Shown here in pieces: positions 16,999 to 34,393 of a DNA stretch of 64,000 nt. The position numbers and the translations under genes are program-made. The stretch is taken from the NCBI GenBank assembly GCA_019057385.1, contig JAHQJS010000004.1:320001-384000 (forward strand), given 5' to 3'. Below the pieces are notes generated by a model. It saw nothing but the letters and a program-made list of their open reading frames with translations, searched no databases and was not told the DNA's origin. This DNA is from Candidatus Borrarchaeum weybense. GTDB taxonomy: Archaea; Asgardarchaeota; Sifarchaeia; Borrarchaeales; Borrarchaeaceae. Position 1 is the first letter of the stretch. Each line of letters begins with the position of its first letter.

Positions 16999-17018
16999 AT
17001 TAGATTGCATTGAGTTAA

Positions 17019-17945
17019 TCAAAGAAGCAATGTTAGAATTGCCTTTTGTGCATGTAATCTGTTTTCCGCTTGATCCCACACAACTGAATTAGGTCCATCA
17101 ATCACCTCGTCAGTAATTTCTTGACCGCGATGTGCTGGAAGGCAATGCATTACAATGACATTTATTAGTGCATTGTTTAGTAATTCTTGATTTACTTGAA
17201 ATGGTGGAAAAACTTCCATTCTTTCCTCTGCTTCAGCCTCTTGCCCCATTGAAATAAAGGTATCAGTATAGACAACATCTGCATCAAGAACTGCGTCTTG
17301 AGGATCGTGAACTATCTGAACTTCAGAATCAAATATTCTTGCGTTGTCTTTTGCTAAATCAATAACATCTTCTAATGGTTCATAGTTTTCCGGACAGCCC
17401 ACTGATATATTGATGCCTAGTTTTGAGCATCCTATAAGTAAAGAATTACAGACATTATTTCCATCTCCAACATAGCTTATCTTCAAATTCTCAAAATTTT
17501 TCCTCTTCTCCTTAATAGTCAAAAGGTCAGCCAATATTTGACAGGGATGGAATAAATCACTTAGACCGTTTATAACTGGGACTTGTGAGAAATCTGCAAG
17601 ATCTAATAAGTCTTCATGTGAGTAAACACGTGCCATAATTCCATCTACATATCGGGCTAGTGTACGCGCAGTATCAGGGATAGTTTCTCCTCTACCAAGT
17701 TGCAAATCTTTTGCGCCTAAAAATAGGGCATAACCTCCCAATTGGCGCATAGCCACTTCAAAGGATACACGAGTTCTAGTACTTGATTTTTCAAAAATCA
17801 TAGCTAATGTTTTTCCATTTAGTATCTCAGACGACTCTCCACGAAGATACATCTTCTTAAGATCGCTCGCAATATCCAACATATAATGAATTTCTTCAAA
17901 TGAAAAATCTTGCAATGTAAAGAAATCCTGTCCTCGAATATCCAT
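17019..17945 (-). CDS. argF: Ornithine carbamoyltransferase
   Basis: SSTRTRVSFE, HPCQ, SMG, HCLP, QAENRLH. Confidence 0.96.
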   Translation of the reverse strand: MDIRGQDFFTLQDFSFEEIHYMLDIASDLKKMYLRGESSEILNGKTLAMIFEKSSTRTRVSFEVAMRQLGGYALFLGAKDLQLGRGETIPDTARTLARYVDGIMARVYSHEDLLDLADFSQVPVINGLSDLFHPCQILADLLTIKEKRKNFENLKISYVGDGNNVCNSLLIGCSKLGINISVGCPENYEPLEDVIDLAKDNARIFDSEVQIVHDPQDAVLDADVVYTDTFISMGQEAEAEERMEVFPPFQVNQELLNNALINVIVMHCLPAHRGQEITDEVIDGPNSVVWDQAENRLHAQKAILTLLL

Positions 17946-18010
17946 AAGGTCCTCCTCCTTTTTCTAAATAGGAGTTAACTAACTTAATTTAAGATCTAAT
18001 AATAATTATA

Positions 18011-18940
18011 TTATATAGCACTTTCTGGTACGATCTTTTCAGCAAACTTTTTAGGATAAAATGCATCTAGATCTTTGTATTCTTGACCGATTCCAATAAA
18101 TACAATGGGCTTTTTCGTAACATGAGCAATAGAAATAGCAGCCCCTCCTTTTGCATCAGCATCAACTTTAGTCAGTATTGAAGCATCAATACCTACAGCC
18201 TCATTGAATTCGCGAGCTTGTTCGACGGCATCATTACCAGCAAGACTGTCTCCTACAAAGACTGTAATCACATTCGCGTCTTCGATTCGTTTAAGAACAC
18301 GAACGATCTTTTCCATCTCTCCCATAAGGTTCTTATTGGTTTGCATTCTCCCAGCAGTATCAATTAGAACAATATCTATGTTTTTTGCAATTGCATGACT
18401 AACAGCATCAAAGGCAACAGCAGCAGAATCCGAGCCATATTTGTGTTTGATTACTTTAACTCCAAGTTTGTTTGCATGAATTTCTATTTGCTCTATGCTT
18501 CCTGCACGGAAAGTATCCGATGCTGCAAGGACTACAGAAAAACCCTTTTTTTGGAATAGACTAGTAAGCTTGGCTAAAGTTGTTGTTTTTCCTGTACCAT
18601 TAACTCCTAAAAATACAATCGCTAAAGGTTGCCCCTGTTCTTTGCCTTTTTTTGCTAACTCAAAAAGATCTATACCCTCTACTTTAAGGATTTCTAGAAT
18701 TGTATTTCTTAAGGCACTATAGACGAATTTCTTTGTGCTCTTAAGACGACCTACCTTCTCACCAGTCAACTGTTGTTTCATAAGTTCTCCAATTTCAGCT
18801 GCCACGGAAAATGCAACGTCGTTTTGTATTAATATTATTTTCAAAGATTCAAGAACATCCTCTAACTGGTCTTCACTCAATGTCTTCGATGATATTTTTT
18901 CTGTAAAACCCTGAAGACCACTTCTTAGTTTTTCAAACAT
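18011..18940 (-). CDS. ftsY: SRP receptor FtsY (first 38 codons apparently supplied by the island)
   Basis: GVNGTGKTTT, DTFRAG, DTAGR, TKVDADAKGG, GIGQ; start MFEKL at 18940. Confidence 0.95.
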   Translation of the reverse strand: MFEKLRSGLQGFTEKISSKTLSEDQLEDVLESLKIILIQNDVAFSVAAEIGELMKQQLTGEKVGRLKSTKKFVYSALRNTILEILKVEGIDLFELAKKGKEQGQPLAIVFLGVNGTGKTTTLAKLTSLFQKKGFSVVLAASDTFRAGSIEQIEIHANKLGVKVIKHKYGSDSAAVAFDAVSHAIAKNIDIVLIDTAGRMQTNKNLMGEMEKIVRVLKRIEDANVITVFVGDSLAGNDAVEQAREFNEAVGIDASILTKVDADAKGGAAISIAHVTKKPIVFIGIGQEYKDLDAFYPKKFAEKIVPESAI

Positions 18941-19263
18941 AGATGTTTTCTCTCCGAGCATATGAAGCATTAAGGATTGATTGATTGCTTGACGCAAGTT
19001 TGTGACATATCAATCAGGTTTTTTAATATACGTTTTGATTCCGAATTTGAAAACTCAATTTTATCGAATAATTATTCAAAGAACATTTTAACACGCATTC
19101 ATCTCTTGTTGAATTATAAAAGATGTTATATCTGATGAGGATGTCTTACCTATTTTATAGTATTCTTGAGCAATAGTATGAATATATGTCGAATAGCTTT
19201 CTTTTATAAAAAATGTGAAAAATGCCCTTTTTCTCTTATATCAGATAATAATTAAGAATAACG

Positions 19264-19304
19264 AAAGGAGTGAGATGATCAGCACAAAACCGATCATCTC
19301 CTTT
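19264..19304 (-). terminator. Hairpin closing guide RNA 1 (terminator or 3' processing signal)
   Basis: AAAGGAG-TGAGATGATC ... GATCATCTC-CTTT inverted repeat just downstream of spacer 1 on the minus strand. Confidence 0.55.
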
Positions 19305-19310
19305 TGGATG

Positions 19311-19470
19311 ATTTCAGCTGCGACAGAAAGCGCGACATCGTTTTCGTGGGTATGACATTTTTCGTCCCTTGCGAGTCATCCGTCCCCTTCGATGAGGCGT
19401 CGGACCTCTCAGGTTCAGTCTCATGCACAAGAACGTGTCCCTCATGTTTTATGAGGAACATACCGCCTTG
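19311..19470 (-). ncRNA. Putative guide RNA 1: scaffold (19346-19436 core) plus 35-nt ftsY-matching spacer (19311-19345)
   Basis: Scaffold repeated at 20452-20546; spacer 28/35 identical to ftsY 18792-18826; own TATA box (TTTATATA, 19498-19505). Confidence 0.8.
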
Positions 19471-19541
19471 CAACTCATATATTCGCTTACAAAGACCTAT
19501 ATAAACACCACTCTTCATAACAAGGACTCCCAGTTCCATAC

Positions 19542-20354
19542 TTACATGTCCTCTTTCAGGTCATCAAGATAAAGGTTGACCATTAATAAGAGATGGTTTT
19601 TCAAAGAAGAAAAACCATAGGTTAGTGCTTCGTTGATTTTATCAAGGTCATTGCATTTTCGAATAAAGGTATAAAGTGCAAAAGGAGAGTATTGGCGCAG
19701 TTCTATCTCTCTTTTTAACGCGTTGAAATCTATCTCTTCTGATTCTGCTACATGATAACGTGAAAATGCAGTCCATCTAAATTTTCGAGAAATCATTGCA
19801 GACCATCTATCATAATTTTGTAGTAAAGAAAGCAGAGGAAAGTCTTTTTCATCTATAGTATAATTATGATGGTTCTTTGCGAGCTGATAGACTTCGTCAT
19901 TAATTATATCAACATCAGTATAAATTTTGCTTGGATGTCGATCAGTGCTTACAAAATCATGCAGGAGCATTGCTATAATTAACTTTTCCTGCACATCTGA
20001 GAGTTTTGGAAGTTTCTTACGTATGTTAATCTTTCTCGAAATATAGAGGGGTTTTTTCTTGAATTCACTCACAGAAGTCCAAAAGATTTGTCCCACCCCC
20101 TCACATGTATAACTCCCGACACTATCAATAGCTAGTGCTTTTTCAAGTTTATGTTCTGGAACGATGAACTCAACATTACCAAACCATGCCCTAAAGGTCA
20201 TTGGAGCACGTCTTTGTCCTACCGTTAATTTTCCGAATACCCTGGGACGACCATTTATAGTCATCGCACCAACATCGGTAACTCCAAAATGTCTACGCCT
20301 TGAAACGATAGGAGTTTTTGTATAACCAATCAATTTAAAGTATTTTTGTGACAT
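19542..20354 (-). CDS. Cas5-like RAMP fused to HD nuclease domain
   Basis: N-terminal beta-rich RAMP ending in G-loop VGSYTCEGVGQI; LLHDF..NHH..YDRWSA and C-terminal SLKNH. Confidence 0.7.
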   Translation of the reverse strand: MSQKYFKLIGYTKTPIVSRRRHFGVTDVGAMTINGRPRVFGKLTVGQRRAPMTFRAWFGNVEFIVPEHKLEKALAIDSVGSYTCEGVGQIFWTSVSEFKKKPLYISRKINIRKKLPKLSDVQEKLIIAMLLHDFVSTDRHPSKIYTDVDIINDEVYQLAKNHHNYTIDEKDFPLLSLLQNYDRWSAMISRKFRWTAFSRYHVAESEEIDFNALKREIELRQYSPFALYTFIRKCNDLDKINEALTYGFSSLKNHLLLMVNLYLDDLKEDM

Positions 20355-20404
20355 TTATTCCCCTCATTTGAGGTTTTACCTCCTCTTTAAACAAAAGAGA
20401 GGAG

Positions 20405-20570
20405 ATATAAACCTTGCCAAAGTAAACACGTTTGCAACTGTTGTTTGTAAAGTGGGTATGACATTTATCGTCCCTTGCGAGTCATCCATCCCCAATAATC
20501 GAGGCGTCGGACCTCTAAGTTGGTTCAGTCTCATGCACAAGAACGTATCACTCACATCAGTAGGTGATAG
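20405..20570 (-). ncRNA. Putative guide RNA 2: scaffold (20452-20546 core) plus spacer matching the cas7 promoter
   Basis: Second scaffold copy; 20405-20451 aligns to 21454-21501 (42/47 identities, one gap); followed by a CTCCTCT/AGAGGAG hairpin. Confidence 0.8.
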
Positions 20571-20608
20571 ACCGTTATGAGATGAGAAAAAAAGTTGAGA
20601 TAAATATG

Positions 20609-21418
20609 TCACACAACCACCTTCTCACCCTGTCCACTCATAAGATTCAAAGAAGTTCTCCAACCCTCGATATTACTTAGAGTTAGTGGAGTTTCAGTGG
20701 TTTCTTCGATAATTTTATAATTTCCTTCACTATCCTCTCCGATTCTTCGAATAGTTTCAACCTTCTGAAGAGCAATATTAAGGATCTTGACGCAACCATA
20801 ACCACTTGCCCGTCCTGCTCCAAGAATTTCTACGTAGAGCATTGCCTCTATAAGAAACTTGATTTCACCATCAGTTAAGTTAGTCACATCAATGTGAAAG
20901 GAAAAAAATCCGCTGAAATAACTCTCACGAAAGTCTTGGATAGGAATACCATCATAGGCAAGAGCTATCCTATTTTCGCTAGCGATGTGGACATTTTGAA
21001 CAGGCACTTCAGTTGTGTATTCCTTATGTTTAATCGAGACAATAGGATCTGCAGCGACAACAATAGAGGACTTTTCGCGGAAGGTGCCAAAGATTGTTCG
21101 GAGAATACAGGGAGGATCACATGTACCAAGCGCATGAAACCCTTTCGGAAGAACACTTTTACCATCTTTAAGCGCTGTTTTCTCAGAACTGTGACAGACT
21201 TCAATGTTGCAGTCTTGAGCAAGCTCCATACAGGCATGTCTTAGCATTCCTCGGATACCTTTAATGTAATAAAACTTAGTATTGAATGTCTTTGAACTGT
21301 TTGTGTAAGGAAGTTTCCCTAACAAGAGCATGCTAGAATTTTTCTGAATCGAGGCATTGATAGGCTTTGCTATGGGTGTAAAGGCATGAATAACTATCTG
21401 TTTTTTGATTTTTCTCAT
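20609..21418 (-). CDS. Cas7-group RAMP (Csm3/Csf2-like backbone subunit)
   Basis: TPI near N-terminus, KGIRGMLRH, Cys cluster ..C..PCILRTIFG, ENRI, C-terminal G-loop LGAGRASGYG. Confidence 0.82.
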   Translation of the reverse strand: MRKIKKQIVIHAFTPIAKPINASIQKNSSMLLLGKLPYTNSSKTFNTKFYYIKGIRGMLRHACMELAQDCNIEVCHSSEKTALKDGKSVLPKGFHALGTCDPPCILRTIFGTFREKSSIVVAADPIVSIKHKEYTTEVPVQNVHIASENRIALAYDGIPIQDFRESYFSGFFSFHIDVTNLTDGEIKFLIEAMLYVEILGAGRASGYGCVKILNIALQKVETIRRIGEDSEGNYKIIEETTETPLTLSNIEGWRTSLNLMSGQGEKVVV

Positions 21419-21452
21419 GTTTCCAACCTCAGATATATTTAGTACAAGTACC

Positions 21453-21501
21453 TATATAAACCTTGCTCAAAATAAACACTTTTCCAACTTTTGTTAGTAA
21501 A
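21453..21501 (-). promoter_or_regulatory. cas7 promoter (TATA/BRE region); predicted target of guide 2
   Basis: TTTATATA at 21453-21460, ~35 bp upstream of the cas7 ATG; same ACCTATATAAAC context as the guide-1 promoter. Confidence 0.75.
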
Positions 21502-21764
21502 ATGGGGATTAAATTGACTTCCATTTTAGAAATAAAGCATTTTTAACAGTTTTTAGATGAAAAACCATCGAATATTTAGTGCCTGCTTTATAAATAACAA
21601 AGTCAAGCAACAATTTACATCATCATCTCTTTAAAAGAATAAACATATGATTTAACAAAATTAAGCGATTACGAGAATTCACAAGGAATACATTAATGGT
21701 GTCAACTAAACTAAAAAATGTTCTTAAAAGAATAATTGTACCATTGATGGTTGCTAATAAATCA

Positions 21765-24700
21765 TTAGGGCAAAAGATCCTTAACTATAACTGGAGGACC
21801 TTTTTTCTGTGGTGTATAAATTCCCTCCATGTGTTGAAACCTTTCAAACATTAGAAGAAGAGCTTCTTTATCTGGAGCATAAATAAAGGGGACGAATCGC
21901 TTCTTTTCTAGCAAAAAATCCTTGAGTTGTAGTGCGCACTGCCTTATAGCATCCTTTACTGTCATATATTCATCCAGATAGTATATCTCTTGATTAAGTA
22001 TATCACCAACCAGTCTCTCAACTTTGTAGTGCCCGTTCCACGTTAAATGATAGAATCGTTCACGCTCTAATGTTTTACGTATCTTAAAATCGGCTTTTGT
22101 AAATTTACCATATATACATGCTAAGATGAAGGTGAACCTGAATAGGGGAAGAAACATCTCTCGGAAGTCAACGACGGTGCCAAGAAAGGATCGCCGTGTT
22201 TTCTTAAAATGCAATATCAGTTCATCGGGCACCCATGAGAACCCTACTTCAGCGAGTGCTTTTCGACAGTAAAAATTAAGATGGCGATAGACGGCATTGA
22301 GTGCCGCACTAAAGGGAGTTCGCGCCTTTGCTTCACCCAGAAGCACCACTGTGGCAATATAGCGATCGAGGGTACGACTAATGATCTCAAAGTAACTGCC
22401 TTGCAGCAAATGCTTGGGAACCTCCCAGGCAACGCTTTCCACTACCCCTTCAAGACCGCGAAGGTTGTCAATATTGCCCCGCCAATAGAGAAAAGTGTAC
22501 GCCACGCGATCCAGCAGTTGGGATAAGAATTCCTGTGCCTCCGCAGAAGATAATATCCCCTCTTTTTCAAACCAGAGAATTGCATTGGCGAGCCCCATAT
22601 TTTTACCCATCACCAGCAGCCTCGCTAATAACGTGCCTCGTTCCGTCCCTCTGAGTTGCTGGGCGGTGTGTTTCAGTTCATCAGCTAATTGTTGTTTCTC
22701 TGGTGTCAGTGTATGCTGTGCAAAGAATCTGCCTTCGGGCGAATTAATATCAATGAGTTTCTTGCCATAGTTCTTACGAACTAGTTGCGAAACTTCTCCA
22801 CCCTCGATGATGATGTGACAGATAGCACCGATTAAATATCGATGTGTTGTTTTCCCGTCCTTTAGTGCATGAGCAAATCGTTTTTTCTTAATATCAAGCC
22901 GTTCACCGCACTTGACACGAATGGTTCGTTTTGGTCGTCGAATGTAAACCTTTGTTTTTTTAACCCGCGGGACATAATTTCCGGGCTTGCCTAAAAGCAA
23001 ATCCAATCCTTTTAGCATCAAACCTCGGTTGCCTGGTTTCACCACCAAGTCACCTTTCATGGTCAAATAATAGCGGGAATTGCATTCGGGACAGACTGTG
23101 TATTCATTATAGCAGGATGGCAATTCCACCGTACCGCCGGAGTAGCAGAAGTAGCACGGAGTATCATCGAGTGTTTCTTGTATGGCACTAATTGTGCGCT
23201 TTTTTAACTCCCGCGCTTTCTGATGGTATTCGCAGGCACCCATCTTTGGTGCGGCATAGGATTTCCTTTCTTGCCTTCCAATTTTTGTGTTATACTTTTG
23301 ATTCAACACACAGATATGTGCACGTTTCGATCTGCGACGATCCTTCATAGAATTTATCCGAAAGAAGCCACATGAACCACAGGTGAGCCGCAGATGTTCA
23401 GGAATACTCATATTCGCGTCTGCCACATAGATTTTAGGGCGACCTCGTAACTGCCCTCGAGAGATAAATTGGATTTTTCCTTGGATTCCTAACTTCTTTG
23501 CATGTTTCACTACCGTAGTATGGTGAACTGGTCGATTATACTGTTTACGAACCTCTGACGTAATTTGTGCGTAAGAGATGACCTTATATTGATTAATAAT
23601 GTTATAAATTGCTTCTTGAAGTCCCGGATATGGTATCGGTCTGTACTTTGGATACCTGCGTCTCCTTCTGCCTTTGTTCCCTCTTTCAACTTCAGGCTCT
23701 TTGTATTCAGGATTTAGTTTTGTGGTAAGTTTTTTGGCAACCCTTGCCGCCCTCGGGTCACTGCGCCCCAGATAGTCATAACTTGCTTCTGCGATCCACG
23801 ACGCCGTCTTTCTATGTGCTTCTGCATCACCCGGTCGTATGTTTACCCGAGTTGCAGCTTTTGTGACCGAAGAACCCTGACTGAGTAACCATACGAAAGA
23901 GGCATATTGCTGGGCGGTATATCGTGTGGTGTTGCTCACTTCATGTATGCTTCGACCGATTAGTGTAATTACGTGCCGGGAGAATTCCCGTTCTGAGGAG
24001 CAATGATGTGTGGCAAAAAACTTCTTGATCCTTAAGGCGGTTTTAATCGGCAGTAAAAATTGGCTGGCCCAGCGTCCTTTGGCTGTTGCACTAAACTTTC
24101 CACCATTTCTTTTGATAAAACCTTCCTTGATAAGTGTGTGAAGGATTCCCTCTCTTTTTTTCTTCGGTTCATCCTGCTTAGGTCGAGCTAACAGTTTCTC
24201 TCTTAGTTGTTGTGTAAAGTCTTTCAACTGGTCGTGGGTGAATGGTGTCAACAGTAAGCGAAGCTCTCCGTTTTTGACCCCGCGTGTAGTGGTGTTCTTC
24301 TTGACCCACATGAAGAATTTTCTCGTTACACGTTTCAAGTCGAATGGGAGAGAGCCTTCGTGCGTTTCGCGCAATAAGGACAGTAAATGAAGTTCGTTAT
24401 TGAGCCGACAAAGCTCCTCTTCCTGGTTCATGAGTGCGTTATTCATTAGTTCGGACCAATTCTGTAGCAATGCTTTGTGTTGATGCCAGAAGTAATGTCT
24501 TTCAAGTTTGTGAAGTAATTGATTCGTGGATGCCGAGCCTCTAGCTATCAGGGTGAGTACAATATCTGCCAAAGAAGAACGTGCCTGGCTTGTTATACGA
24601 TGTTCTTTGACTATCAATTGTCCCTCGACGATTTGTATCTCCTTTTGCTTCAAAATTTCTTGATCGTCCCCCACGAAGATCAGATCAGCATAGCCCACCC

Positions 24701-25775
24701 GATGATGGCGCGGTCGTGCCGCCCTGCCACTCAATTGTATCAACAGGTGAGGGTTGAACATCCCGGCATCGGCAATTATCACCCGTTTGATCGGAAAGTC
24801 CACCCCCTCTCCGTATTGAATCGTTGACAGAAAAACCTGAAATTCACCCTTCTTAAGCCGTCTCATAGCTTCTTGTTGTTCCTCTTTACTGAGCCCGGCG
24901 TGACTGTAGCCCACGGTGAGATCGAGTCCACAACTCTTAAGAAAGGACTGCAACTCTATAGCTCGTTGTTCAACCTGATTTCGTGTGTAGCAAAAGATGT
25001 GCACGATTTTAGTCCCCTGATCATCACCATACGAGCGTTGTTCAAAGGTCTTTTTGATCAAGCGAGCGAACAGAAAGCGTTTTTTTCGTTCAATCTGCTC
25101 TATGGTGCTGCCTGAAACCCCACAAGATGACACAATAAGCTTCGACTGCCGTTCGTTGGTATGGATAAGTTGAGCGTCAAGCCAACTTACCAGTTCCTCG
25201 GCATTCCCCAGAGTAGCCGAGAGATAGATGATATGCGGGCGAGGGCGTAACCAAGATCTTGCATTGACGATTGCAGTTTCTAGGCGAGCACCCCGCCCTT
25301 TGTTGCCCAGATTGTGCAGTTCATCGACCACAATCAATCCTATCTTGTCTAAAAACGGATACTCGAAATGCTTAACTAGCAGTCCATTGAAGGATTCGTA
25401 GGTGCTGATGAGGATATCCGCCGTTTCAAGCTCTTCAGGAGACGAACGGTCATCTCCGCTGACTTTGAGGATGGTACAGGCGTCGTGATACCACTCTTTG
25501 AACTTGTCATACATCTGATCGATCAGCCGTTTGGTCGGCTCAAGAATTACACAGCGCATCCCTTTTCCAAGCACGCGGGTAGACACTATTTGGGATATCA
25601 AGGTTTTTCCCGAAGCGGTAGGAGTGTACAACACCTTGTCCTGCCTTTGTTTACCAGAAAAACATGCCTCCCATTGAAAGTCGTAGAGGGCGTTAATGTC
25701 AGCCTGTTCCAACCGTTGACGTATGAATTCGTAGTTTAACCCTCTTTTCGTCATTGTAATGAACTGGCCTCTCAA
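21765..25775 (-). CDS. Ski2/Hel308-like SF2 helicase - HTH/Zn-finger linker - divergent Cas1 integrase fusion
   Basis: Helicase: PTASGKT, DELH, SAT, HAGL, QLSGRAAR. Cas1 (~21765-22950): LRGLEG, PFSAALNAVY, ILH, DFREMF. Start may be ATG 25754; TATA box at ~25810. Confidence 0.82.
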   Translation of the reverse strand: MRGQFITMTKRGLNYEFIRQRLEQADINALYDFQWEACFSGKQRQDKVLYTPTASGKTLISQIVSTRVLGKGMRCVILEPTKRLIDQMYDKFKEWYHDACTILKVSGDDRSSPEELETADILISTYESFNGLLVKHFEYPFLDKIGLIVVDELHNLGNKGRGARLETAIVNARSWLRPRPHIIYLSATLGNAEELVSWLDAQLIHTNERQSKLIVSSCGVSGSTIEQIERKKRFLFARLIKKTFEQRSYGDDQGTKIVHIFCYTRNQVEQRAIELQSFLKSCGLDLTVGYSHAGLSKEEQQEAMRRLKKGEFQVFLSTIQYGEGVDFPIKRVIIADAGMFNPHLLIQLSGRAARPRHHRVGYADLIFVGDDQEILKQKEIQIVEGQLIVKEHRITSQARSSLADIVLTLIARGSASTNQLLHKLERHYFWHQHKALLQNWSELMNNALMNQEEELCRLNNELHLLSLLRETHEGSLPFDLKRVTRKFFMWVKKNTTTRGVKNGELRLLLTPFTHDQLKDFTQQLREKLLARPKQDEPKKKREGILHTLIKEGFIKRNGGKFSATAKGRWASQFLLPIKTALRIKKFFATHHCSSEREFSRHVITLIGRSIHEVSNTTRYTAQQYASFVWLLSQGSSVTKAATRVNIRPGDAEAHRKTASWIAEASYDYLGRSDPRAARVAKKLTTKLNPEYKEPEVERGNKGRRRRRYPKYRPIPYPGLQEAIYNIINQYKVISYAQITSEVRKQYNRPVHHTTVVKHAKKLGIQGKIQFISRGQLRGRPKIYVADANMSIPEHLRLTCGSCGFFRINSMKDRRRSKRAHICVLNQKYNTKIGRQERKSYAAPKMGACEYHQKARELKKRTISAIQETLDDTPCYFCYSGGTVELPSCYNEYTVCPECNSRYYLTMKGDLVVKPGNRGLMLKGLDLLLGKPGNYVPRVKKTKVYIRRPKRTIRVKCGERLDIKKKRFAHALKDGKTTHRYLIGAICHIIIEGGEVSQLVRKNYGKKLIDINSPEGRFFAQHTLTPEKQQLADELKHTAQQLRGTERGTLLARLLVMGKNMGLANAILWFEKEGILSSAEAQEFLSQLLDRVAYTFLYWRGNIDNLRGLEGVVESVAWEVPKHLLQGSYFEIISRTLDRYIATVVLLGEAKARTPFSAALNAVYRHLNFYCRKALAEVGFSWVPDELILHFKKTRRSFLGTVVDFREMFLPLFRFTFILACIYGKFTKADFKIRKTLERERFYHLTWNGHYKVERLVGDILNQEIYYLDEYMTVKDAIRQCALQLKDFLLEKKRFVPFIYAPDKEALLLMFERFQHMEGIYTPQKKGPPVIVKDLLP

Positions 25776-26228
25776 TTCCTGCCTCTCATTTACAATGGTT
25801 GCAAATTTCTATATAAAGAGGGGAACTTTTGGATCGCTGGCTCGAAAAACTATGTCACTTGAACTCTTCACAAACCAAAGCGTTTTCCAAATCAAATGCT
25901 ATTAGACACAAATTAGAGATCGTTACTTTCATTAATTGAATCTACACGAACTCTCACTAAAAACAAAATTGTAGCATTTATGAAAGAATTTTCAAATGAT
26001 AGCATCATTTGATAACGGGAACGTAATCTAATTTCGGGACGGTAAAATTATCGCTAAAACTAGGAATATGAATCTTTGAAATCATATAGGAGAGGAACTT
26101 CAACTCACTAGAGAGGCATAAGGATATGTGAAATCATAATTAAACAAATATGTCCAGCAAAAAATTACTAAGCTTTATTAGTTGCCAAGCTAATATCTAG
26201 ACGATTAATATGGACGCGGTTCGTAAAA

Positions 26229-28469
26229 ATGCCAACAGATGACCATTTTAAAAGAGGAATTGAATTCTTCAATCGAAAACAATACAAGAAGGCCATTAAA
26301 GCATTCAAGAAGGCTTTAACGTCAGACCAAGAACACTATGTGATATGGTACAACATGGGATTAGCTTTCTCGAAACTAGATAAATTCACTAATGCCATTT
26401 ATTGTTATAAAAAAGCCGTGAAAATTAACCCTGAGTTTGCAGAAGCGTGGGGCAACATGGGTGCTGCGTATCATGAGTTAGATAAGCTTAACAAAGCCAT
26501 CGAGTGCTTCCAAAGGGCATTGGAAATCAACCCTGAGTTAATAGACACATTAAACAATATGGCGGCAGTTTACATAAAATTAAATGAGTATAATAAAACT
26601 GTCGAATGTTATCAAAAAGTTTTGGAAATTGCCCCTATGAATAAAATCGCTTTGCATAATTTAGCTTGGGCTTATGGAAACTTAAATAATTATGAAAAAG
26701 CAGTTGAATATTACCAAAAGGCAATAAAAAACGAACCTGAATATGTATTCGCATGGAATAACTTAGGAGCGGTTTATGGAAAACTCGGTGAGTATAAAAA
26801 AGCCATTGAATGTTATGAAAAGGTCCTTAAACTTGACCCCATAAATGTAAAGGCATGGAAAGGCATAGAAATTGCTCACAGAAAATTAAACGAATTTGCT
26901 GAGGCAATTGAGTGTTGCCAAAGAGTTATAGAACTCAATTCTAGCGATATAGACACATGGAATAATATGGGCGTTTCCTACGGAGAATTGGGCGAATATA
27001 ATAAAGCTATCGCATGTTTTGAAGAAATATTAAGAATTGAACCCAATAACGCAAAAGCGCTGAATAACGCAGGAATTGCCTACGAAGGATTAAATGAGTT
27101 TAAAAATGCGCTTAACTATTATAAGAAGGCTTTAGAAATTGATCCTAATTATGTAGATGCATGGTACAACATGGGCAACGCCTATAAAAAGTTAGACGAA
27201 CACATGAAAGCAATTGATTGCTACAAGAAAGTCGTGGCAATTGACTCAGAGCATACAAAAGCATGGAATAATTTGGGCAATACCTATGAAAAATTAGACC
27301 TACATATGCCTGCGATCGAATGCTATGAGAAAGCGTTGAAAATTAACCCTGAGTTTGTTAATGCTTGGTATAACATAGGTAATGTCTATAGAAACTTAGA
27401 CGAAGACATGAAGGCGATTGAATGTTATAAGAAAGCTGTGGAAATCGACTCGAAGCACTCAAAAGCATGGGGAAATATGGGTGCCATTTACACGCTTTTA
27501 GGTGAACACATGTCTGCAATCGAGTGCTATAAGAATGCTGTAGAAGCTAGTCCTGAATATGCTGGCGCGTGGTATAACATGGGTGTGACCTATGTAGAAG
27601 TAGGCAAATACATGTCTGCAATCGAATGCTATAAGAAAGCATTGGAAATAAATCCCGATTATATAGATGCATGGACGGGGATGGGGATCGCGTATGCAAC
27701 GTCTGATAATTATAATAATGCCTTTGAGTCCTTTCAAAACGCATTGGACATCAATTCTGAAGATGTTGGTACATGGTACAATTTAGGTGTGACTTACAAG
27801 AAATTAGGAGAGCGTAACAAGGCACATGATTGTTTTAAAAAGGCTCTGGAGATCAATCCTAAAGATATATTGTCAGCATACAATATGGGGGCGATTCAAG
27901 CAGAACTAAATGCAGAAAAGAAGATCTCAGAATTAAAGAACGACGTTGATTTTCTGAAAGGTCAAGAACTAGAGAATAAGATAAGTGAACTTGTCGAGAA
28001 ATCGTATAGTTTTCAATGCAAAAGAGAATATCGTGTCCAAAAATTGGAGGACGAAGAAGTCGAAAAATTCATTGAAAGAGGTTGTTATAGAGAAAGTACT
28101 AAATCAGTTGAATTAGATGTAATAGCTATAAAGGAAGAAGCCAAAACTGGGAAAAAACGCCCTGCCATGTTACTTTGTGAGTGTAAAGCCAAAAATACGC
28201 ATACAAATGAAAAACAAATCAAATGTTTCCTTTTAAAGACAGAAATTTGGAAGAGAAAATTTACTGAATTTTATGAATCCATGCCTGATTATCTCGCCCC
28301 AGAGTTCATATTATGGTATGTTAGCTTAAAAGGATTTACCAGAAACGCTGAAACGCTAATAAATCAAAATAAGATTGAGCCCTTTGATCTTGAAAAATTA
28401 AACAAGGAATTGAAGAAAGTAAATATTCTAACAATTCCTAAGAGATTTATTGCAGAACAAGAAAATTAG
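26229..28469 (+). CDS. TPR-repeat protein with C-terminal PD-(D/E)xK (Mrr/restriction endonuclease-like) domain
   Basis: ~16 TPRs (AWYNMG..Y..AIECY.KAL.I.P); ELDVIA..CECK..VSLKGFT. Confidence 0.8.
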   Translation: MPTDDHFKRGIEFFNRKQYKKAIKAFKKALTSDQEHYVIWYNMGLAFSKLDKFTNAIYCYKKAVKINPEFAEAWGNMGAAYHELDKLNKAIECFQRALEINPELIDTLNNMAAVYIKLNEYNKTVECYQKVLEIAPMNKIALHNLAWAYGNLNNYEKAVEYYQKAIKNEPEYVFAWNNLGAVYGKLGEYKKAIECYEKVLKLDPINVKAWKGIEIAHRKLNEFAEAIECCQRVIELNSSDIDTWNNMGVSYGELGEYNKAIACFEEILRIEPNNAKALNNAGIAYEGLNEFKNALNYYKKALEIDPNYVDAWYNMGNAYKKLDEHMKAIDCYKKVVAIDSEHTKAWNNLGNTYEKLDLHMPAIECYEKALKINPEFVNAWYNIGNVYRNLDEDMKAIECYKKAVEIDSKHSKAWGNMGAIYTLLGEHMSAIECYKNAVEASPEYAGAWYNMGVTYVEVGKYMSAIECYKKALEINPDYIDAWTGMGIAYATSDNYNNAFESFQNALDINSEDVGTWYNLGVTYKKLGERNKAHDCFKKALEINPKDILSAYNMGAIQAELNAEKKISELKNDVDFLKGQELENKISELVEKSYSFQCKREYRVQKLEDEEVEKFIERGCYRESTKSVELDVIAIKEEAKTGKKRPAMLLCECKAKNTHTNEKQIKCFLLKTEIWKRKFTEFYESMPDYLAPEFILWYVSLKGFTRNAETLINQNKIEPFDLEKLNKELKKVNILTIPKRFIAEQEN

Positions 28470-28640
28470 GCTTAAAAGATCCTTCTAAACTTTCGACATG
28501 ACGTAATTGAACTAATAAAAATAAATAGCATAAAATGTGATAGATATGGAAAAAGTAGAAGCGTTTTCATGGTATTTTGTTAAAAATAAATGGCCTGATT
28601 TAATTAACCGTTTCCATATTTTTCCCATAGGACTTTTAGG

Positions 28641-29207
28641 TTGGTTATCAGAATAAAAACTACATATTATCCATCTCTTAATGTTCAACAAATTAACTTT
28701 GTCCAAACAATCCTTATAAGATGGTGGAAAGAGGAAATAAGTGCAAAAGGAAAAAGAGACTTTTTCTGGAGGAAATGGATACTTGATCCTAAGATGACTA
28801 CCGTCATTTTGGAGGATTTTTCGTTTCCTCGTGATTTTGGTATATTTTGTACTGAAACAGCCCTGCGAAAAACACGCGCTGAAACTGTAGAAATTCATTT
28901 TAGACCATTTTTCAGGAGGTTTCATAGTTTTCAAGAAGTTAAAGCTGCAGATACAAAAGAATTAAGAAAAGTCCTATACCCCCTAGGTCGTGTCTCCCAG
29001 AATGTACGAGACCTTAAACAACGGGCTACAATAATAATAAACGAATTTAATTCGGAAGTCCCATGTACTAAAGAATACATAAGACGTCTAATGAAAACCT
29101 ATACACGAAAAATCTTACTGGAACACAGTTTCGAACATGGAGATGCAATAAACAGTACTTTGGTGCCTTTGCCACAATTCCTCCATCAGCTAATTCTAAG
29201 AGATTAA
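28641..29207 (+). pseudogene. Truncated HhH-GPD DNA glycosylase (MutY/MIG-like)
   Basis: KRDFFWR, ETALRKTRAETV, PLG, EVPCTKE; similarity ends before the HhH motif and FeS cluster. Confidence 0.6.
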
Positions 29208-29281
29208 GAGGATACAACATTTAAACCTTTGTGTGAGACCTTTTTCGTCTACCGCAAGTCAATGACCTCATTATAAAATAG

Positions 29282-29407
29282 TTATACTAGAAAAAGAAGA
29301 ATTAATTGTAGTTCCCAGAGAACATCATCAATTTGATCTTCGCTTAAAGTCTTAGTGGATACCTTGTCAGCGAATCCTGTGAGACTCTTTTTTAACTTTT
29401 CAAACAT
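29282..29407 (-). pseudogene. Stranded original 5' end of ftsY (41 codons)
   Basis: MFEKLKKSLTGFADKVSTKTLSEDQIDDVLWELQLILLFLV*; 23/38 aa identical to the FtsY N-terminus; directly downstream of pfdA. Confidence 0.9.
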
Positions 29408-29469
29408 CTTAATTTCTCTCTATGAAGGTCACTTAAACAGTAATTGTTCAGAAAAAAGTAATATTGATG

Positions 29470-29895
29470 CTATTTTTGTTGCATCTTATTGTAAGTTTCT
29501 TGTACAGTAGCCCGAAGTTCTTCTATTCTCTGGAGAGTGGTTCCCAACTGGTTTTGGAGTGTTGTGGAAATTCCTCGTAGTTCTTGTAATCGTTCAGCAA
29601 GTTTTTCTTGAGCGTTCTCTATACTCGTTTCAATAACTACATCACTACCTATCCCTAGAATAACCTTTTGTACGTTTGCAAGTGTTGCAAAAACAAATGA
29701 ATTCGATCCAATAGGTAAAAGGACCTCTTGACCTTCTTCTGCTTTAGTGATTCCATCAAGTGTGACACCTGTAATTGTAATCTGATTAATTTGAGCTTCA
29801 ACAGCTTCGACATTAGTTCTTAATACATCTGCATTAGCTTGTTGATGATTGAGTTCGTGAACCATCTGTTCAATCTTTTTTTGTTCTTCAGCCAT
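29470..29895 (-). CDS. pfdA: Prefoldin subunit alpha
   Basis: Coiled coils flanking EVLLPIGSNSFV..VILGIGSDVVIE. Confidence 0.92.
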   Translation of the reverse strand: MAEEQKKIEQMVHELNHQQANADVLRTNVEAVEAQINQITITGVTLDGITKAEEGQEVLLPIGSNSFVFATLANVQKVILGIGSDVVIETSIENAQEKLAERLQELRGISTTLQNQLGTTLQRIEELRATVQETYNKMQQK

Positions 29896-29921
29896 TCTTT
29901 ATGCCTCCCTTGGCAAATTAT

Positions 29922-30158
29922 TTATATTCGTGATAATTCAGAAGTAAGGCTCTTCAGTACAGGATCGGTAATATCTTCATCTTGAATTTGTGAAATTTCA
30001 GTTATTTTTATGAATTTTCTTGGAACTTTGTGTTTACTCCCTATAAGGGATAAAACGTTTTCAATTGCATGGGTTTCTTTTAGGGCTTTGATCTCTTTGG
30101 CGAATGGGATCTTTTTACTCTTTGCTCTATAGACGCCCTTAATCCGAAATACTGACAA
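29922..30158 (-). CDS. rpl18a: 50S ribosomal protein L18Ae (LX/eL20)
   Basis: FRIKG..FAKEIKA..AIE..S.IGSKHKVPRKFIKI; probable TTG start. Confidence 0.88.
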   Translation of the reverse strand: MSVFRIKGVYRAKSKKIPFAKEIKALKETHAIENVLSLIGSKHKVPRKFIKITEISQIQDEDITDPVLKSLTSELSRI

Positions 30159-30404
30159 TAAAAACACCTCTATTTTCAGTGAAACCTTTTGTGCACATCT
30201 TAACATATTATCTTTTAACCTTTTACATTTGGGTTGAGAATTTTTGCTTTGTAAAAAAACTCTTGCTGTGAAAATTGGTTTTTAAATTGCACAATGAAAA
30301 GCTTAATAATTTTTATCCTAGCAAGGTCATTCATCTTGCAAAGACTTCGTTCTGAGTGATATTTATCTGGCGAGAGTCCTTTCTGAGAGTAAAATGGATT
30401 AACA

Positions 30405-31085
30405 GTGTACCTGGTGAACTGTGTGGTTATTGTTCAGAATAACTTTAATGGAATCGCCTCAGTCGGCATAATCTCACTGGCTACTGATAGTTATGTATTG
30501 GTTCCAAGAAACCTTCCAAAAAGAGTAGTCAATAAGCTACATGAGGTATTTGCTGCGCCAATTATCAAAACTTCAATTTATCAATCGCATCTAATTGGAA
30601 TATTAGCCGCTGGTAATAAATTTGGTCTATTAACTCATTTTCTTTCTGATGATGATGAGATTGAATATCTTAAGAAGGAAATTGGTATCCCTGTTGAAAG
30701 AATGAAAAGTAAACTAACTGTCGGAAATTGCATTCTTGCTAATGACAAAGGCGCAATTGCTGCGGATGAATTTGGTAAAGAAGACATTAAGCAAATCACT
30801 GATATTCTCAATGTAGAAGTTTTGCAAGGAAAGATCGTCAATTCATCTTTAATCGGATCACTTGGAGCAGCAAGTAATGAAGGCGCTATGGTGCACCCAT
30901 TAGCTACCGAAAAGGAATTAGAATGGATTAGCGAAGGCTTGAAAGTACATTCTGATATTGGGACCGTTAACAGAGGTGTTCCATATGTCTCAACAGGAAT
31001 CTTAGTTAATTCACAGGGGTGCGTTACAGGCGAAGAGACTACAGGTCCTGAATTAGTAAGAATCTCACAAACATTCGCACTTTAA
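30405..31085 (+). CDS. eif6: Translation initiation factor 6 (inverted relative to neighbours)
   Basis: GNCILANDKGA, GAMVHP, GTVNRGVPYV, TTGPELVRI; start may be GTG ~30423. Confidence 0.93.
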   Translation: MYLVNCVVIVQNNFNGIASVGIISLATDSYVLVPRNLPKRVVNKLHEVFAAPIIKTSIYQSHLIGILAAGNKFGLLTHFLSDDDEIEYLKKEIGIPVERMKSKLTVGNCILANDKGAIAADEFGKEDIKQITDILNVEVLQGKIVNSSLIGSLGAASNEGAMVHPLATEKELEWISEGLKVHSDIGTVNRGVPYVSTGILVNSQGCVTGEETTGPELVRISQTFAL

Positions 31086-31167
31086 ACTCTTATTTATTAT
31101 TGAGTATATAGTAATTACATTAATTTTTGAAAAAACAAAAAGAGAAATATCTATTGAAATAAAATGT

Positions 31168-31455
31168 TCATTTTGCTAAGTAAACTTCACATATCCCTTC
31201 GGTGTCCTTCACTGCCCTAACTCTTATTTTTCTCGGAGGTTTTTCGATACCTCGCTTCCAAAGTTCTTCATTGAGTTCTGGATCAATTCGAATGTCAATA
31301 GGATTTACTTTCATATGACGTTCTATGTAGTGTTTCAGAATCTTTATCGCACGAACTGTGCGTTTATGCCGTGGGGCGTGCTTTACGTCACGAAATGGAA
31401 TAGTATATAACTCTTCTTTTTCAATTTCTTCATCTAATATTTCTTCATCTGACAT
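31168..31455 (-). CDS. rpl31e: 50S ribosomal protein L31e
   Basis: YTIP, LNEELWKRGIEKPPRKIRVR. Confidence 0.95.
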   Translation of the reverse strand: MSDEEILDEEIEKEELYTIPFRDVKHAPRHKRTVRAIKILKHYIERHMKVNPIDIRIDPELNEELWKRGIEKPPRKIRVRAVKDTEGICEVYLAK

Positions 31456-31476
31456 TTCGTTTACGCATCCTTTCTA

Positions 31477-31632
31477 CTATTTCTTTAAGCGTGTACGTCG
31501 CCAATGCCTACTTTTAGGATGTGTACGCACTCTTCTTCGAGTTCTAACAACTATCCATGCAGGAACGCTTCTTGATTGCTTCAGTGCTTTTCCTAGTCGC
31601 AATTTTTTTCCTAAAGGTTTATATCGTGCCAA
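31477..31632 (-). CDS. rpl39e: 50S ribosomal protein L39e (not in ORF track)
   Basis: TTG start, [39 protein letters not shown]. Confidence 0.92.
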
Positions 31633-31645
31633 TGACAAGAATCTC

Positions 31646-31990
31646 CTATTTTCGTGTGATTTTAATATCTCTTTGTTTATCAGTCAATCTTCGTAAAATG
31701 GTTTTTAATTGGTCATCAGTTAATACATTGCCAAGTCGTCCAGCTTGTGCAAGTTGAATTAATTGAAGTTCAACCGCTTCAGCCAATTCGGGTTTTACAA
31801 TTTTTATTCGATTCAATCGTTCTCTTGCTTCAGGAGTCAATATCTGTCGGAGTATTGCTTGTTTCTGGGCTTCTAGTTCCTGTTGCATTTGTGCTTGTCG
31901 TTCTTGTTCTCCTTGTTGCTGTTGTAACTCAAGCATACGTCTTTTCTTTAATTCTTCAAGTTCTTCATCCGACAAGGTTTTTCCCTCCAA
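31646..31990 (-). CDS. PDCD5-family DNA-binding protein
   Basis: [28 protein letters not shown]. Confidence 0.93.
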
Positions 31991-32005
31991 GTTAAAAAAT
32001 CATTC

Positions 32006-32437
32006 TTACTTTTTTAATTGCTTTAAAATCTTGTTAGCAGCACGATCCATAAAAGAACGACCTTTAGCCGATAATGTTCGGCCAGAAGTATCATTTGGCT
32101 TCTCAATAAAACCTAACGCCTCTAATTGTTGTAAACCTAATCTAATTATCTTCCCAGCGCCTTTTCTAAAATGCTCTCTTCTATTGCCTTTGCGTAGTCT
32201 TCCTCCATACTTTATTCGAAGACGATTGACTCCAATTGGGCCATTAATATATACTTTACGTAGCAGGCTAGCTAGCCTGACATACCACCAATTAGGATTG
32301 GTCGGTGCCTTCTCCCGAAAGACGCCAGTTTTAACAAAGGACGCCCATGCTGGAGGTTTAAGCTCATCTATGTTCTTAAGTTCACTCGCAACTTCTTTAT
32401 TTAGTATAGCCGCTGGCACTTCATAAATGGTAACCAT
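32006..32437 (-). CDS. rps19e: 30S ribosomal protein S19e
   Basis: PAWASFVKTG, WWYVRLASLLRKVY, GPIGVNRLR..YGG. Confidence 0.95.
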   Translation of the reverse strand: MVTIYEVPAAILNKEVASELKNIDELKPPAWASFVKTGVFREKAPTNPNWWYVRLASLLRKVYINGPIGVNRLRIKYGGRLRKGNRREHFRKGAGKIIRLGLQQLEALGFIEKPNDTSGRTLSAKGRSFMDRAANKILKQLKK

Positions 32438-32821
32438 GAAACATCTCACCGATACGAGATTTTGTTCCTCTATTCTAGTATTTTCGATACTAGACTTAAT
32501 TCATTTATAAACATTTGCCAGTTGTCAATTTGAGCCTTATTTTTTCCCTTTATCTCTAAAGAGAAGAAAAAGGAAACCAATATCATCTTTCTTAAATTCC
32601 CAATTTAAATAAACTATCCTTTTCGTTATACAACAAGACCAAGACTGTAAATAAAATTGCGAGATTTTTGCGAAAAATAAGAATTGATTCTTTAATATCT
32701 GTATAGACTATTTATTTTGCTTAGAATCAAAAATTCAAAAAAAGGATAAAAAAAGTGAAAGATTTGATATTTTGAGATTTCTTATAAAGGTTGTTCTTTT
32801 ATGGGGTTGGAACACTATTAT

Positions 32822-34393
32822 TTAACCTAACTGTGCTTTGAGCTCTGCAATCTCCTTCTTCAGGCGTGCAACTAAATCTGAGTGCTTCTCCTCGGAGATT
32901 TTTCCATCAAGGAGCAGATCATCTGCTTTTTCTATTCTTTCTTGACGCTCTTTTATCTCATTTTTAATTTTACCTGTATCAGTAGACGTGGTTGGAATCG
33001 TTGATGGCCCTGCGACTGGAACAACACCAGCTCCGGTGACTATTGTTGGGGATGCATCAATTGAGACACCTTTCTTACCTAGTTCACGATATCCTTCAGC
33101 TTTTACAAGATCCTCAACACTTATGCCCGCTTCTTTGGCTCGTAAATACAACTCTGCGTCAATACCTTTCATTGTAGCGTACTTTTCAGCTTCTATTCGT
33201 GCAAGTGCTTCATCTTCAGCAGTTGATGAGAGTGCTTCATATTTTGCTTTCATAGCTTCTAATTCTGCTAGTTTTAACTCCTTTTCTTTTTCAAGCATCG
33301 CAAGTTCTGTTTCGGAACTTATCATTTTCGCCTTGGCAGTTTTTTGTATAACTAATTCTTCGTATTCTTCAGCTCCAGCGATGGTTGCTATTTCAAGTCG
33401 CGCTAACTGGACTCCCCAATCGCCAAATGTATTCTCAGCGATTACTTTTGCTTTAGTGGAAATACCTTCGCGATTTGAAAACACATCTTCTAATGGATAG
33501 GTGGATAATGTTTGCGTTACGATTCCTCTCATGGAGTCTTTTGCCCAGTTATCAAATTCATCAGGCGCTAATTTCTCCTTACCACCAATAAAGTTTTGAA
33601 CGAGGCGTTTAGGGTCACTAATTTTGATGTACGCCGTGCCTGAGGCTCCGATCTTTATCTTATCTTGTGTATAGATACGTTTAGGAACTCCCCAGGGAAT
33701 TTTATATTCACGTGTATTTACCCATACGACTTCAGTGCCAACTAGTGCACTGTAGAGTTTTCGTACATCCATTCCGCTGAAGATTTTGTGAAGTAGTCCT
33801 TTAGAATCCTCTTTTCTCCACGCTTTGTCCATTTTCCCTGAAGCTTCTAATTCTTGCGCACGTTCTCTCGCTTTTTCTTCAATTTTTCTCTCTTCTTCTG
33901 GTATTAAATCATATACCCCTGCGCTTAATTCTCCTATCAAAGCTCCCTGTTTATAGAACAATGCTTTTTCATACGATCGTACAACAAATCCTCGAATGGG
34001 TTCCTGAAGTCTCGCATCATATCCACACTTCTTGCAGAAAGGCTGACCTGCTTTAATTGTAGAAACTCGTTCGGTAGGTATATCTGCACCACATTTTCTA
34101 CAGAATTGTTGTCCTTTATTTGCAAGTGTTCCACATTTTGGACATTTCCTTGCTTCTGCTAGTTTTCTACATCCCGGACAGTGCATATCATAAATTGGCG
34201 GAGCATTCATAATATCTTCATATGTAAGTCGATGTATTATTCCAGGATATACTTGGTGGTTCCAAATGTAGGTATATCGATCTCTACCCCATTCTTTTTC
34301 AATTACCTCATCAGCGTCTAATCCTTTGTCTGCTACTCTTTTAACATCCTTGTCCACTTTTCTGGTTCTAAACCATTCTTTAATCGACGACAT
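32822..34393 (-). CDS. Zn-ribbon + SPFH/band-7 domain protein with coiled coil
   Basis: Multiple CxxC pairs; VVRSYEKALFYKQG..G.Y, WG, SGTAYIKISDP, WGVQLARLEI. Confidence 0.75.
   Translation of the reverse strand: MSSIKEWFRTRKVDKDVKRVADKGLDADEVIEKEWGRDRYTYIWNHQVYPGIIHRLTYEDIMNAPPIYDMHCPGCRKLAEARKCPKCGTLANKGQQFCRKCGADIPTERVSTIKAGQPFCKKCGYDARLQEPIRGFVVRSYEKALFYKQGALIGELSAGVYDLIPEEERKIEEKARERAQELEASGKMDKAWRKEDSKGLLHKIFSGMDVRKLYSALVGTEVVWVNTREYKIPWGVPKRIYTQDKIKIGASGTAYIKISDPKRLVQNFIGGKEKLAPDEFDNWAKDSMRGIVTQTLSTYPLEDVFSNREGISTKAKVIAENTFGDWGVQLARLEIATIAGAEEYEELVIQKTAKAKMISSETELAMLEKEKELKLAELEAMKAKYEALSSTAEDEALARIEAEKYATMKGIDAELYLRAKEAGISVEDLVKAEGYRELGKKGVSIDASPTIVTGAGVVPVAGPSTIPTTSTDTGKIKNEIKERQERIEKADDLLLDGKISEEKHSDLVARLKKEIAELKAQLG

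Follow-up and report, generated by a model that had tools for sequence, protein, structure and literature searches.

The interrupted ftsY locus

The 64,000-nt stretch of DNA analysed (positions 320,001 to 384,000 of contig JAHQJS010000004.1, assembly GCA_019057385.1; hereafter the window, from whose first letter all positions are counted) comes from the Asgard archaeon Candidatus Borrarchaeum weybense, and contains an insert of approximately 10.5 kb that separates the prefoldin gene pfdA from ftsY and sits between ftsY codons 38 and 39. Read along the minus strand, the insert consists successively of a variable left part, a helicase-Cas1 fusion gene, a RAMP gene, a scaffold sequence followed by a short variable stretch, the gene for a 270-aa protein, and a second scaffold sequence followed by a 35-nt sequence (guide 1) and a hairpin (Table 1). 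The present analysis concerns guide 1 as the putative homing guide of a mobile element related to the ARAMP (Asgard RAMP) modules of Asgard archaea.

Table 1. Position and nature of the features of the insert and of the interrupted gene
Feature	Position	Strand	Basis or remark
Intact chimeric ftsY	18011..18940	-	TIGR00064 at 1.2e-95; ~93% nt identity to L130 past codon 50
Resident target (B')	18792..18826	-	Compared with native alleles differs at 1, 9, 15, 16; 17-35 identical to L130
Element-borne diverged ftsY codons 1-38 (A'), rescue 5' end	18827..18940	-	Comparison with uninterrupted alleles
AT-rich unique spacer (Y)	18941..19270	-	Presumed promoter region of restored ftsY
Hairpin then T-rich run, terminator-like end of guide transcript	19271..19302	-	Fold
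Guide 1	19311..19345	-	Copies 35 nt of native ftsY codons 39-50, in ftsY sense
Terminal scaffold RNA gene, ~105-125 nt	19346..19470	-	Guide begins 7 nt past conserved GTSA motif
270-aa protein, predicted N-terminal Cas5/Csm4-like RAMP and C-terminal HD domain	19542..20354	-	Motifs, model
Internal guide	20406..20451	-	Conserved between element copies
Internal scaffold RNA gene	20452..20576	-	Covariation; repeat of terminal scaffold
Cas7-like RAMP, 269 aa	20609..21418	-	PF03787 4e-06, 27.9 bits, above cut-off 22.1
Site matched by internal guide, just upstream of RAMP gene	21454..21507	-	Ends at TATA-like box
Hel308/Ski2-like helicase-Cas1 fusion, 1336 aa	21765..25775	-	PF00270 3e-26, PF00271 1e-14, PF01867 1e-07
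Left part of insert, varies between copies	25776..29293	.	TPR gene 26229-28469 (+), HhH-GPD-like fragment; Pfam
Stranded native ftsY codons 1-38	29294..29407	-	Directly after pfdA; left junction 29294|29293

Uninterrupted pfdA-ftsY loci were present in two genomes of the same genus (G004 and G002) and in metagenome contigs, the closest uninterrupted allele being that of metagenome contig L130, which is 95% identical over the upstream 600 nt. The stranded remnant agreed with L130 at 111 of 114 nt and at all 38 amino acids before reading on, after codon 38, into the residues FLV and a stop. By way of contrast, the corresponding segment of the working gene (A') matched any uninterrupted allele at only 70-76 of 114 nt and 23-26 of 38 amino acids while the remainder of the gene was native-like, and the working ftsY is thus a chimera. 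As judged from these alignments, the diverged element-borne 5' end extends to about codon 44 and there joins the native gene. Spacer Y, for which no homologue was found elsewhere in the genome, is not homologous to the native pfdA-ftsY spacer except for some 13 nt of leader, and presumably supplies the promoter for the restored gene.

Two routes to this arrangement were considered and rejected: tandem duplication as the origin of the rescue segment, because Y shows no homology to native upstream sequence and A' is much more diverged than the remnant, and Campbell-type integration via an ftsY fragment, because the segment order that it predicts does not fit. Contigs of four DNA runs aligned to 17500-30500 yielded no joint that skips the insert, and the ftsY-guide-scaffold arrangement was also spanned by one contig from another study at 94% identity.

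Guide 1 and its match to ftsY

The minus strand from 19345 to 19311 aligned without gaps to ftsY from 18826 to 18792 at 28 of 35 positions, with mismatches at 1, 9, 12, 15, 16, 21 and 24, thereby reproducing exactly the alignment of an initial annotation, made from the sequence of the window, which had proposed that the 35 bases are a homing guide beginning at the insertion junction. Position 1 of the guide does coincide with the first base of ftsY codon 39, the point at which the homology of the remnant (codons 1-38, 29407 to 29294) stops, and only the coordinates needed a small correction, the ATG of ftsY lying at 18940 and that of the remnant at 29407. The annotation would have been undermined by a match no better than that of shuffled controls, or by one that formed part of a longer degenerate duplication of ftsY, and neither was found: the next-best match of the 35-mer was 21/35 in the window and 24/35 in the whole 4.18-Mb genome (both strands), a cross-element permutation gave a null maximum of 24 in 382 comparisons, and the edges of the alignment were sharp, the match not continuing as a degenerate duplication on the side of the guide and the same-register flanks being unrelated, with the scaffold on the 5' side of the guide and the hairpin on its 3' side.

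The guide resembles uninterrupted alleles more closely than it does its resident target, agreeing with L130 at 32, with G002 at 30 and with G004 at 29 of its 35 positions. A closer match of this kind had been suggested as a check by the initial annotation, and the three mismatches with codons 39-50 of L130 fall at 12, 21 and 24, two of them (12 and 24) at multiples of six. Positions 17-35 are present twice at the locus, so that guide 1 is a separate copy and not the sole remnant of the original site; on this comparison, it preserves the sequence of an unoccupied ftsY allele. Two origins had initially been offered for the divergence between guide and gene, namely derivation of the guide from a related host and recoding of the site, and each is partly borne out, since the guide resembles the unoccupied allele of close relatives and the resident site departs from native sequence at the end proximal to the scaffold, as a continuation of the element-borne 5' end. 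Lying in the sense of ftsY, guide 1 can pair with the template DNA strand and not with the ftsY mRNA.

The sequence from 19345 to 19250 gave a fold of -26.4 kcal/mol (z -2.6), and hairpins analogous to the one that follows guide 1 come after the guides of other element copies.

Scaffold RNA and internal guide

Approximately 23 copies of the scaffold occur in the genome, mostly paired at a spacing of 1.1 kb and adjacent to RAMP and HD genes. Across 28 copies from this and related genomes, the 10-bp hairpin at the 5' end of the scaffold exhibited compensatory changes at eight pairs; single scaffold sequences fold no better than shuffles, and the structure therefore rests on covariation. No Rfam family was matched in 17000-31000. 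Element copies cease to be homologous precisely at the 3' end of the scaffold and, on the strength of these sequence comparisons, the conserved sequence of about 105 nt is a structured RNA gene. It does not belong to a short repeat-spacer array, none of which was found in 17000-34000, where the sole repeats are the two scaffolds.

The sequence that follows the internal scaffold, the internal guide, matches a non-coding site just upstream of the RAMP gene, and comparison of the two in seven elements revealed a six-base periodicity of mismatches. In the element copies designated E2 and E1, the mismatches lie at 6, 12, 18, 22 and 30 (in E1 additionally at 16), in E9 at 18, 24 and 30, and in a second lineage (E4-E6) at 6, 9, 18, 24, 30, 36 and 42; in total, 30 of 42 mismatches from the two lineages fall at multiples of six. 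The same pattern of internal guide and promoter was recorded at loci L056-L060 and L063. The periodicity is a hallmark of pairing on a Cas7-type backbone, on which every sixth guide base is unconstrained, and shows that the sequence after a scaffold serves as a guide whose positions are numbered from where the scaffold ends. It also suggests that the guide complex may autoregulate via the RAMP promoter.

If the internal guide targets the promoter of its own element, as appears to be the case, guide 1 could by the same token repress or otherwise regulate the resident ftsY in the style of CRISPR interference. That is the least probable of the readings considered, because the resident site carries five mismatches at pairing positions (1, 9, 15, 16 and 21), whereas in the promoter targets mismatches are almost confined to every sixth base.

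Three further observations concern the distribution of scaffolds. Three scaffolds are present in element E9 (L063, G000:C5:117988-128548): it is the guide of the additional one that matches the flank, and two of the three combine internal-type and terminal-type sequence as reciprocal hybrids. At G000:C4:903446-903655, this genome has a lone scaffold of about 170 nt that is missing from the corresponding place in G004 (compared with L115), as if scaffolds alone could be inserted or left behind. Finally, an 81-nt motif resembling the 3' hairpin of the scaffold occurs at 29199-29279 of the window, 14 nt inside the left junction, and at G000:C3:20289-20365 in an unrelated intergenic region, the two copies being 85% identical to each other.

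Proteins of the cassette

The Cas1 match (31.9 bits) lies in the C-terminal part of the helicase-Cas1 fusion, six copies of which are present in the genome; a phmmer comparison of the Cas1 part with PDB sequences found nothing. The 270-aa protein matched no Pfam or NCBIfam entry, although the columns of its HD, H, HH, D and H motifs are invariant in nine homologues. Its predicted structure (pLDDT 75), for which Foldseek returned no match at E <= 0.001, consists of two domains, residues 119-270 resembling the HD domain of Csm1/Cas10 (residues 2-218 of 6ifk_A, Z 7.1) and residues 1-105 being most like RAMP subunits of class 1 systems (Z 5-6). The gene set corresponds to the ARAMP module of Asgard archaea.

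The left part of the insert is not common to other copies of the element. The cassettes E4, E7, E10 and E11 contain the RAMP and HD protein genes and scaffolds without helicase-Cas1, and in this respect are like non-autonomous elements.

Recurrence in other copies of the element

The relationship between guide and insertion site recurs beyond ftsY. Among the variable guides of this genome, 6 of 16 have a same-strand downstream match above every cross-element control, and guides agree closely with the corresponding empty alleles of sister genomes (33/35 for E11, 30/35 for E7, 28/30 for G004:C24 and 27/30 for G004:C95). For E1 the agreement is 29/30, and the flank of the sister genome can be followed as far as the left junction and picks up again at the guide. 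The resident targets match the guides less well, the extra mismatches being concentrated in positions 1-10 (20 of 44, as against 7 of 43 for empty alleles). Guides keep a fixed register relative to the scaffold end in at least eight elements. All five of the insertion sites tested were empty in the sister species, which indicates that the elements move on a species time scale.

In the copy G004:C95, the guide repeats in inverted orientation a site lying 17-45 nt from the insert and thus cannot be a read-through of the flank, so that an element is able to store its guide. When set against the empty allele of this genome, the resident site of the same copy shows five substitutions in guide positions 4-9 within flanks that are 94-96% identical, a cluster that looks like escape from self-targeting. 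Examined at L067 (2780-2812), it amounts to five substitutions in six bases in the 3' end of a gene, where the neighbouring guide would begin pairing.

A second architecture was apparent in E10 and at about ten sites of G004 and G001, in which native flank follows from the first base after the scaffold, with neither terminator nor duplicate. Such copies, together with the fact that the remnant and the guide add up to the native N-terminus (50 of 50 amino acids shared with L130), lend some credence to a purely positional guide of the kind associated with TnpB, the 35 bases then being original ftsY sequence enclosed by two separate insertions and reached by read-through from the scaffold. For guide 1 this nevertheless seems improbable: positions 17-35 exist in two versions, of which the resident one is identical to L130 and the guide differs at 21 and 24; a hairpin terminator directly follows the guide; and read-through cannot account for the inverted guide of G004:C95.

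The notion that guide 1 is a scar of repair or duplication without guide function draws on the short duplicated target segments that flank extra DNA in several copies. It is very unlikely, given the fixed register at the scaffold end, the conservation of guides towards empty alleles, the six-base periodicity of the internal guide and the hairpin terminators right after guides.

At four independent sites (among L114, L129, L124, L126 and L128; G004 and G001) the scaffold abuts the ATG of the host gene exactly, so that the guide consists of the first codons of that gene, which may be expressed as a leaderless read-through product. Moreover, six of seven guides inside coding sequence (those of E1, E2, E3, E7, L123 and L125 being named examples) begin at a codon boundary, placing the unpaired positions 6, 12, 18 and so on at wobble bases, an arrangement that would tolerate synonymous variation.

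Examination of the junctions of E1, E2, E9 and E10 detected neither terminal inverted repeats nor target duplications, and the left junction is sometimes accompanied by a small deletion. The empty-site targets shared no evident motif upstream. A ruler of the Cas1-Cas2 type was considered for guide length and rejected, native-like guides ranging from 30 to 77 nt.

Proposed role of guide 1 and mode of spread

These data are most readily explained if guide 1 is the stored homing guide of an ARAMP-type mobile element in ftsY, the resident gene having been restored by the element itself, and we consider this likely on sequence grounds. The element would encode a small RNA made up of scaffold, guide and terminator hairpin, and would restore ftsY by supplying both a promoter region of its own and diverged codons 1 to about 44. 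The guide would reproduce, in stored form, the unoccupied allele directly 3' of the point of insertion. Carried by a RAMP filament and the RAMP-HD protein, the RNA would pair in Cas7 fashion with the ftsY template strand, every sixth base remaining unpaired, and the complex would recognise unoccupied ftsY alleles in other copies of the genome or in incoming DNA. It might then either drive copying of the element into such alleles or punish loss of the element, as the transposon-encoded guide RNAs of TnpB and IscB do. The resident site would be spared because its scaffold-proximal 16 positions are changed (differences at 1, 9, 15 and 16). The homing-guide interpretation of the initial annotation thus gains support from the match to L130 and from the recurrence in other copies; homing activity itself, together with expression of the RNA, DNA binding and cleavage by the HD domain, we infer.

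A number of observations weigh against this explanation. A search of 30 Asgard ftsY genes and 10 metagenome loci identified no source lineage for the rescue segment A' closer than the genus itself, and the divergence of this segment greatly exceeds that of the remainder of the gene. Pairing position 21 is mismatched even with the closest empty allele, L130, and sister-species alleles show three to four mismatches at pairing positions. The fold matches of the 270-aa protein are moderate (Z 5-7). The geometry also varies, the scaffold directly abutting native flank in many copies and the guide in one being inverted and 17 nt away from the insert, and the lengths of native-like guides differ more than twofold, as given above.

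With regard to the mode of spread, the guide complex might simply mark ftsY and recruit helicase-Cas1, which would insert the element at the 5' edge of the protospacer in the manner of CRISPR-associated transposons (CAST), the HD domain having no role in spread. In favour of such a mechanism, guide position 1 marks the left junction in E2, E1 and E3, and Cas1, the motifs of which look intact, is the only candidate integrase in the minimal 6.6-kb copy E1. We nevertheless regard it as rather unlikely in view of the lack of terminal inverted repeats or target duplications at the junctions examined, the variable distance and orientation of guide target and insert, the occurrence of several copies with RAMP, HD protein and scaffold but no helicase-Cas1, and the conservation of the HD motifs. 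Spread of the homing element by HD cutting and break-induced recombinational copying is slightly favoured over Cas1 integration, on account of the varying guide-to-insert geometry, the conservation of the HD motifs in copies without helicase-Cas1 and, by analogy, the parallel with Asgard Cas1-TnpB loci (PMC10691335).

More speculatively, ARAMP cassettes in general could be programmable RNA-guided homing modules of helicase-Cas1 transposons which, in essential genes, would resemble a natural cleave-and-rescue gene drive, the guide hitting the unoccupied allele and the element supplying a diverged 5' end that the guide does not match.

Comparison with known systems

ARAMP was described by Makarova et al. 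(2020, CRISPR J) and is summarised in PMC8730458 and PMC12669027 as a derivative of type III systems that lacks an array, has a distinct Cas1 and works by a mechanism regarded as enigmatic; these summaries, as far as they extend, do not mention an RNA component. The ftsY element shares with ARAMP, as there outlined, an Asgard host, a Cas7-like RAMP, a distinct Cas1 and the absence of a CRISPR array and, as judged from moderate fold matches, probably also a Cas5-like partner with a nuclease domain, but differs from the summarised system in possessing a scaffold RNA of about 105 nt and guides tied to its own insertion site and its own promoter. A full-text literature search, the scope of which did not extend to the original 2020 ARAMP paper, found no description of the scaffold RNA, the guides or the link to the insertion site.

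The TnpB/IscB OMEGA systems of IS200/IS605 elements are similar in that the guide RNA is encoded by the transposon, with the scaffold at the element end and the DNA beside the insertion as guide, in having neither inverted repeats nor target duplication, and in their logic of homing or retention. The flank-guide feature is present as such in E10 and at the ten or so sister-genome sites, whereas at ftsY the guide is a stored copy. The putative effector also differs, being a multi-subunit class 1 derivative (Cas7 filament plus Cas5-HD) rather than a RuvC nuclease, no single-protein nuclease domain of that type having been found in the cassette with Pfam or NCBIfam; in addition, some guides are stored copies followed by a terminator, and the element can bring a replacement 5' end for the gene that it splits. 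In the aCas1-TnpB loci of Asgard archaea, Cas1 has been proposed to act as a transposase travelling with guide-RNA nucleases, TnpB carrying the guide (PMC10691335).

CAST systems (types I-F3, I-B, I-D and V-K, with homing spacers) are likewise mobile elements that carry a class 1 guide complex, the guide of which corresponds to the chromosomal site of attachment. By comparison, the ftsY element has no repeat-spacer array, is inserted at the protospacer or inside it and not some 50 bp downstream, and deploys a Cas1-helicase in place of a DDE transposase; Pfam detected no Tn7 proteins (TnsA/B/C, TniQ) among the open reading frames of the insert, and the minimal copy E1 holds only three genes. 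Casposons resemble it in having a Cas1-family protein as the candidate integrase of a mobile element, and differ in their PolB, terminal inverted repeats and 14-15-bp target duplication, none of which was seen here (in E1 there is no room for PolB), and in that Cas1 is here fused to a helicase.

With its array-less, CRISPR-like guide RNA, which copies the insertion site in the essential gene ftsY, the element suggests a form of RNA-guided homing that has yet to be described. The ARAMP locus and its paralogues would supply the missing RNA, fix the guide register and tie each guide to its own insertion site, thereby providing a concrete mechanism that can be tested. It is also unusual that the element rescues the essential gene in which it sits. 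If correct, this would constitute a third independent case of guide-RNA homing by mobile elements, after TnpB/IscB and CRISPR-associated transposons, in this instance with a Cas7 filament, a Cas5-HD protein and a Cas1-helicase as its components and with a host from the archaea most closely related to eukaryotes.
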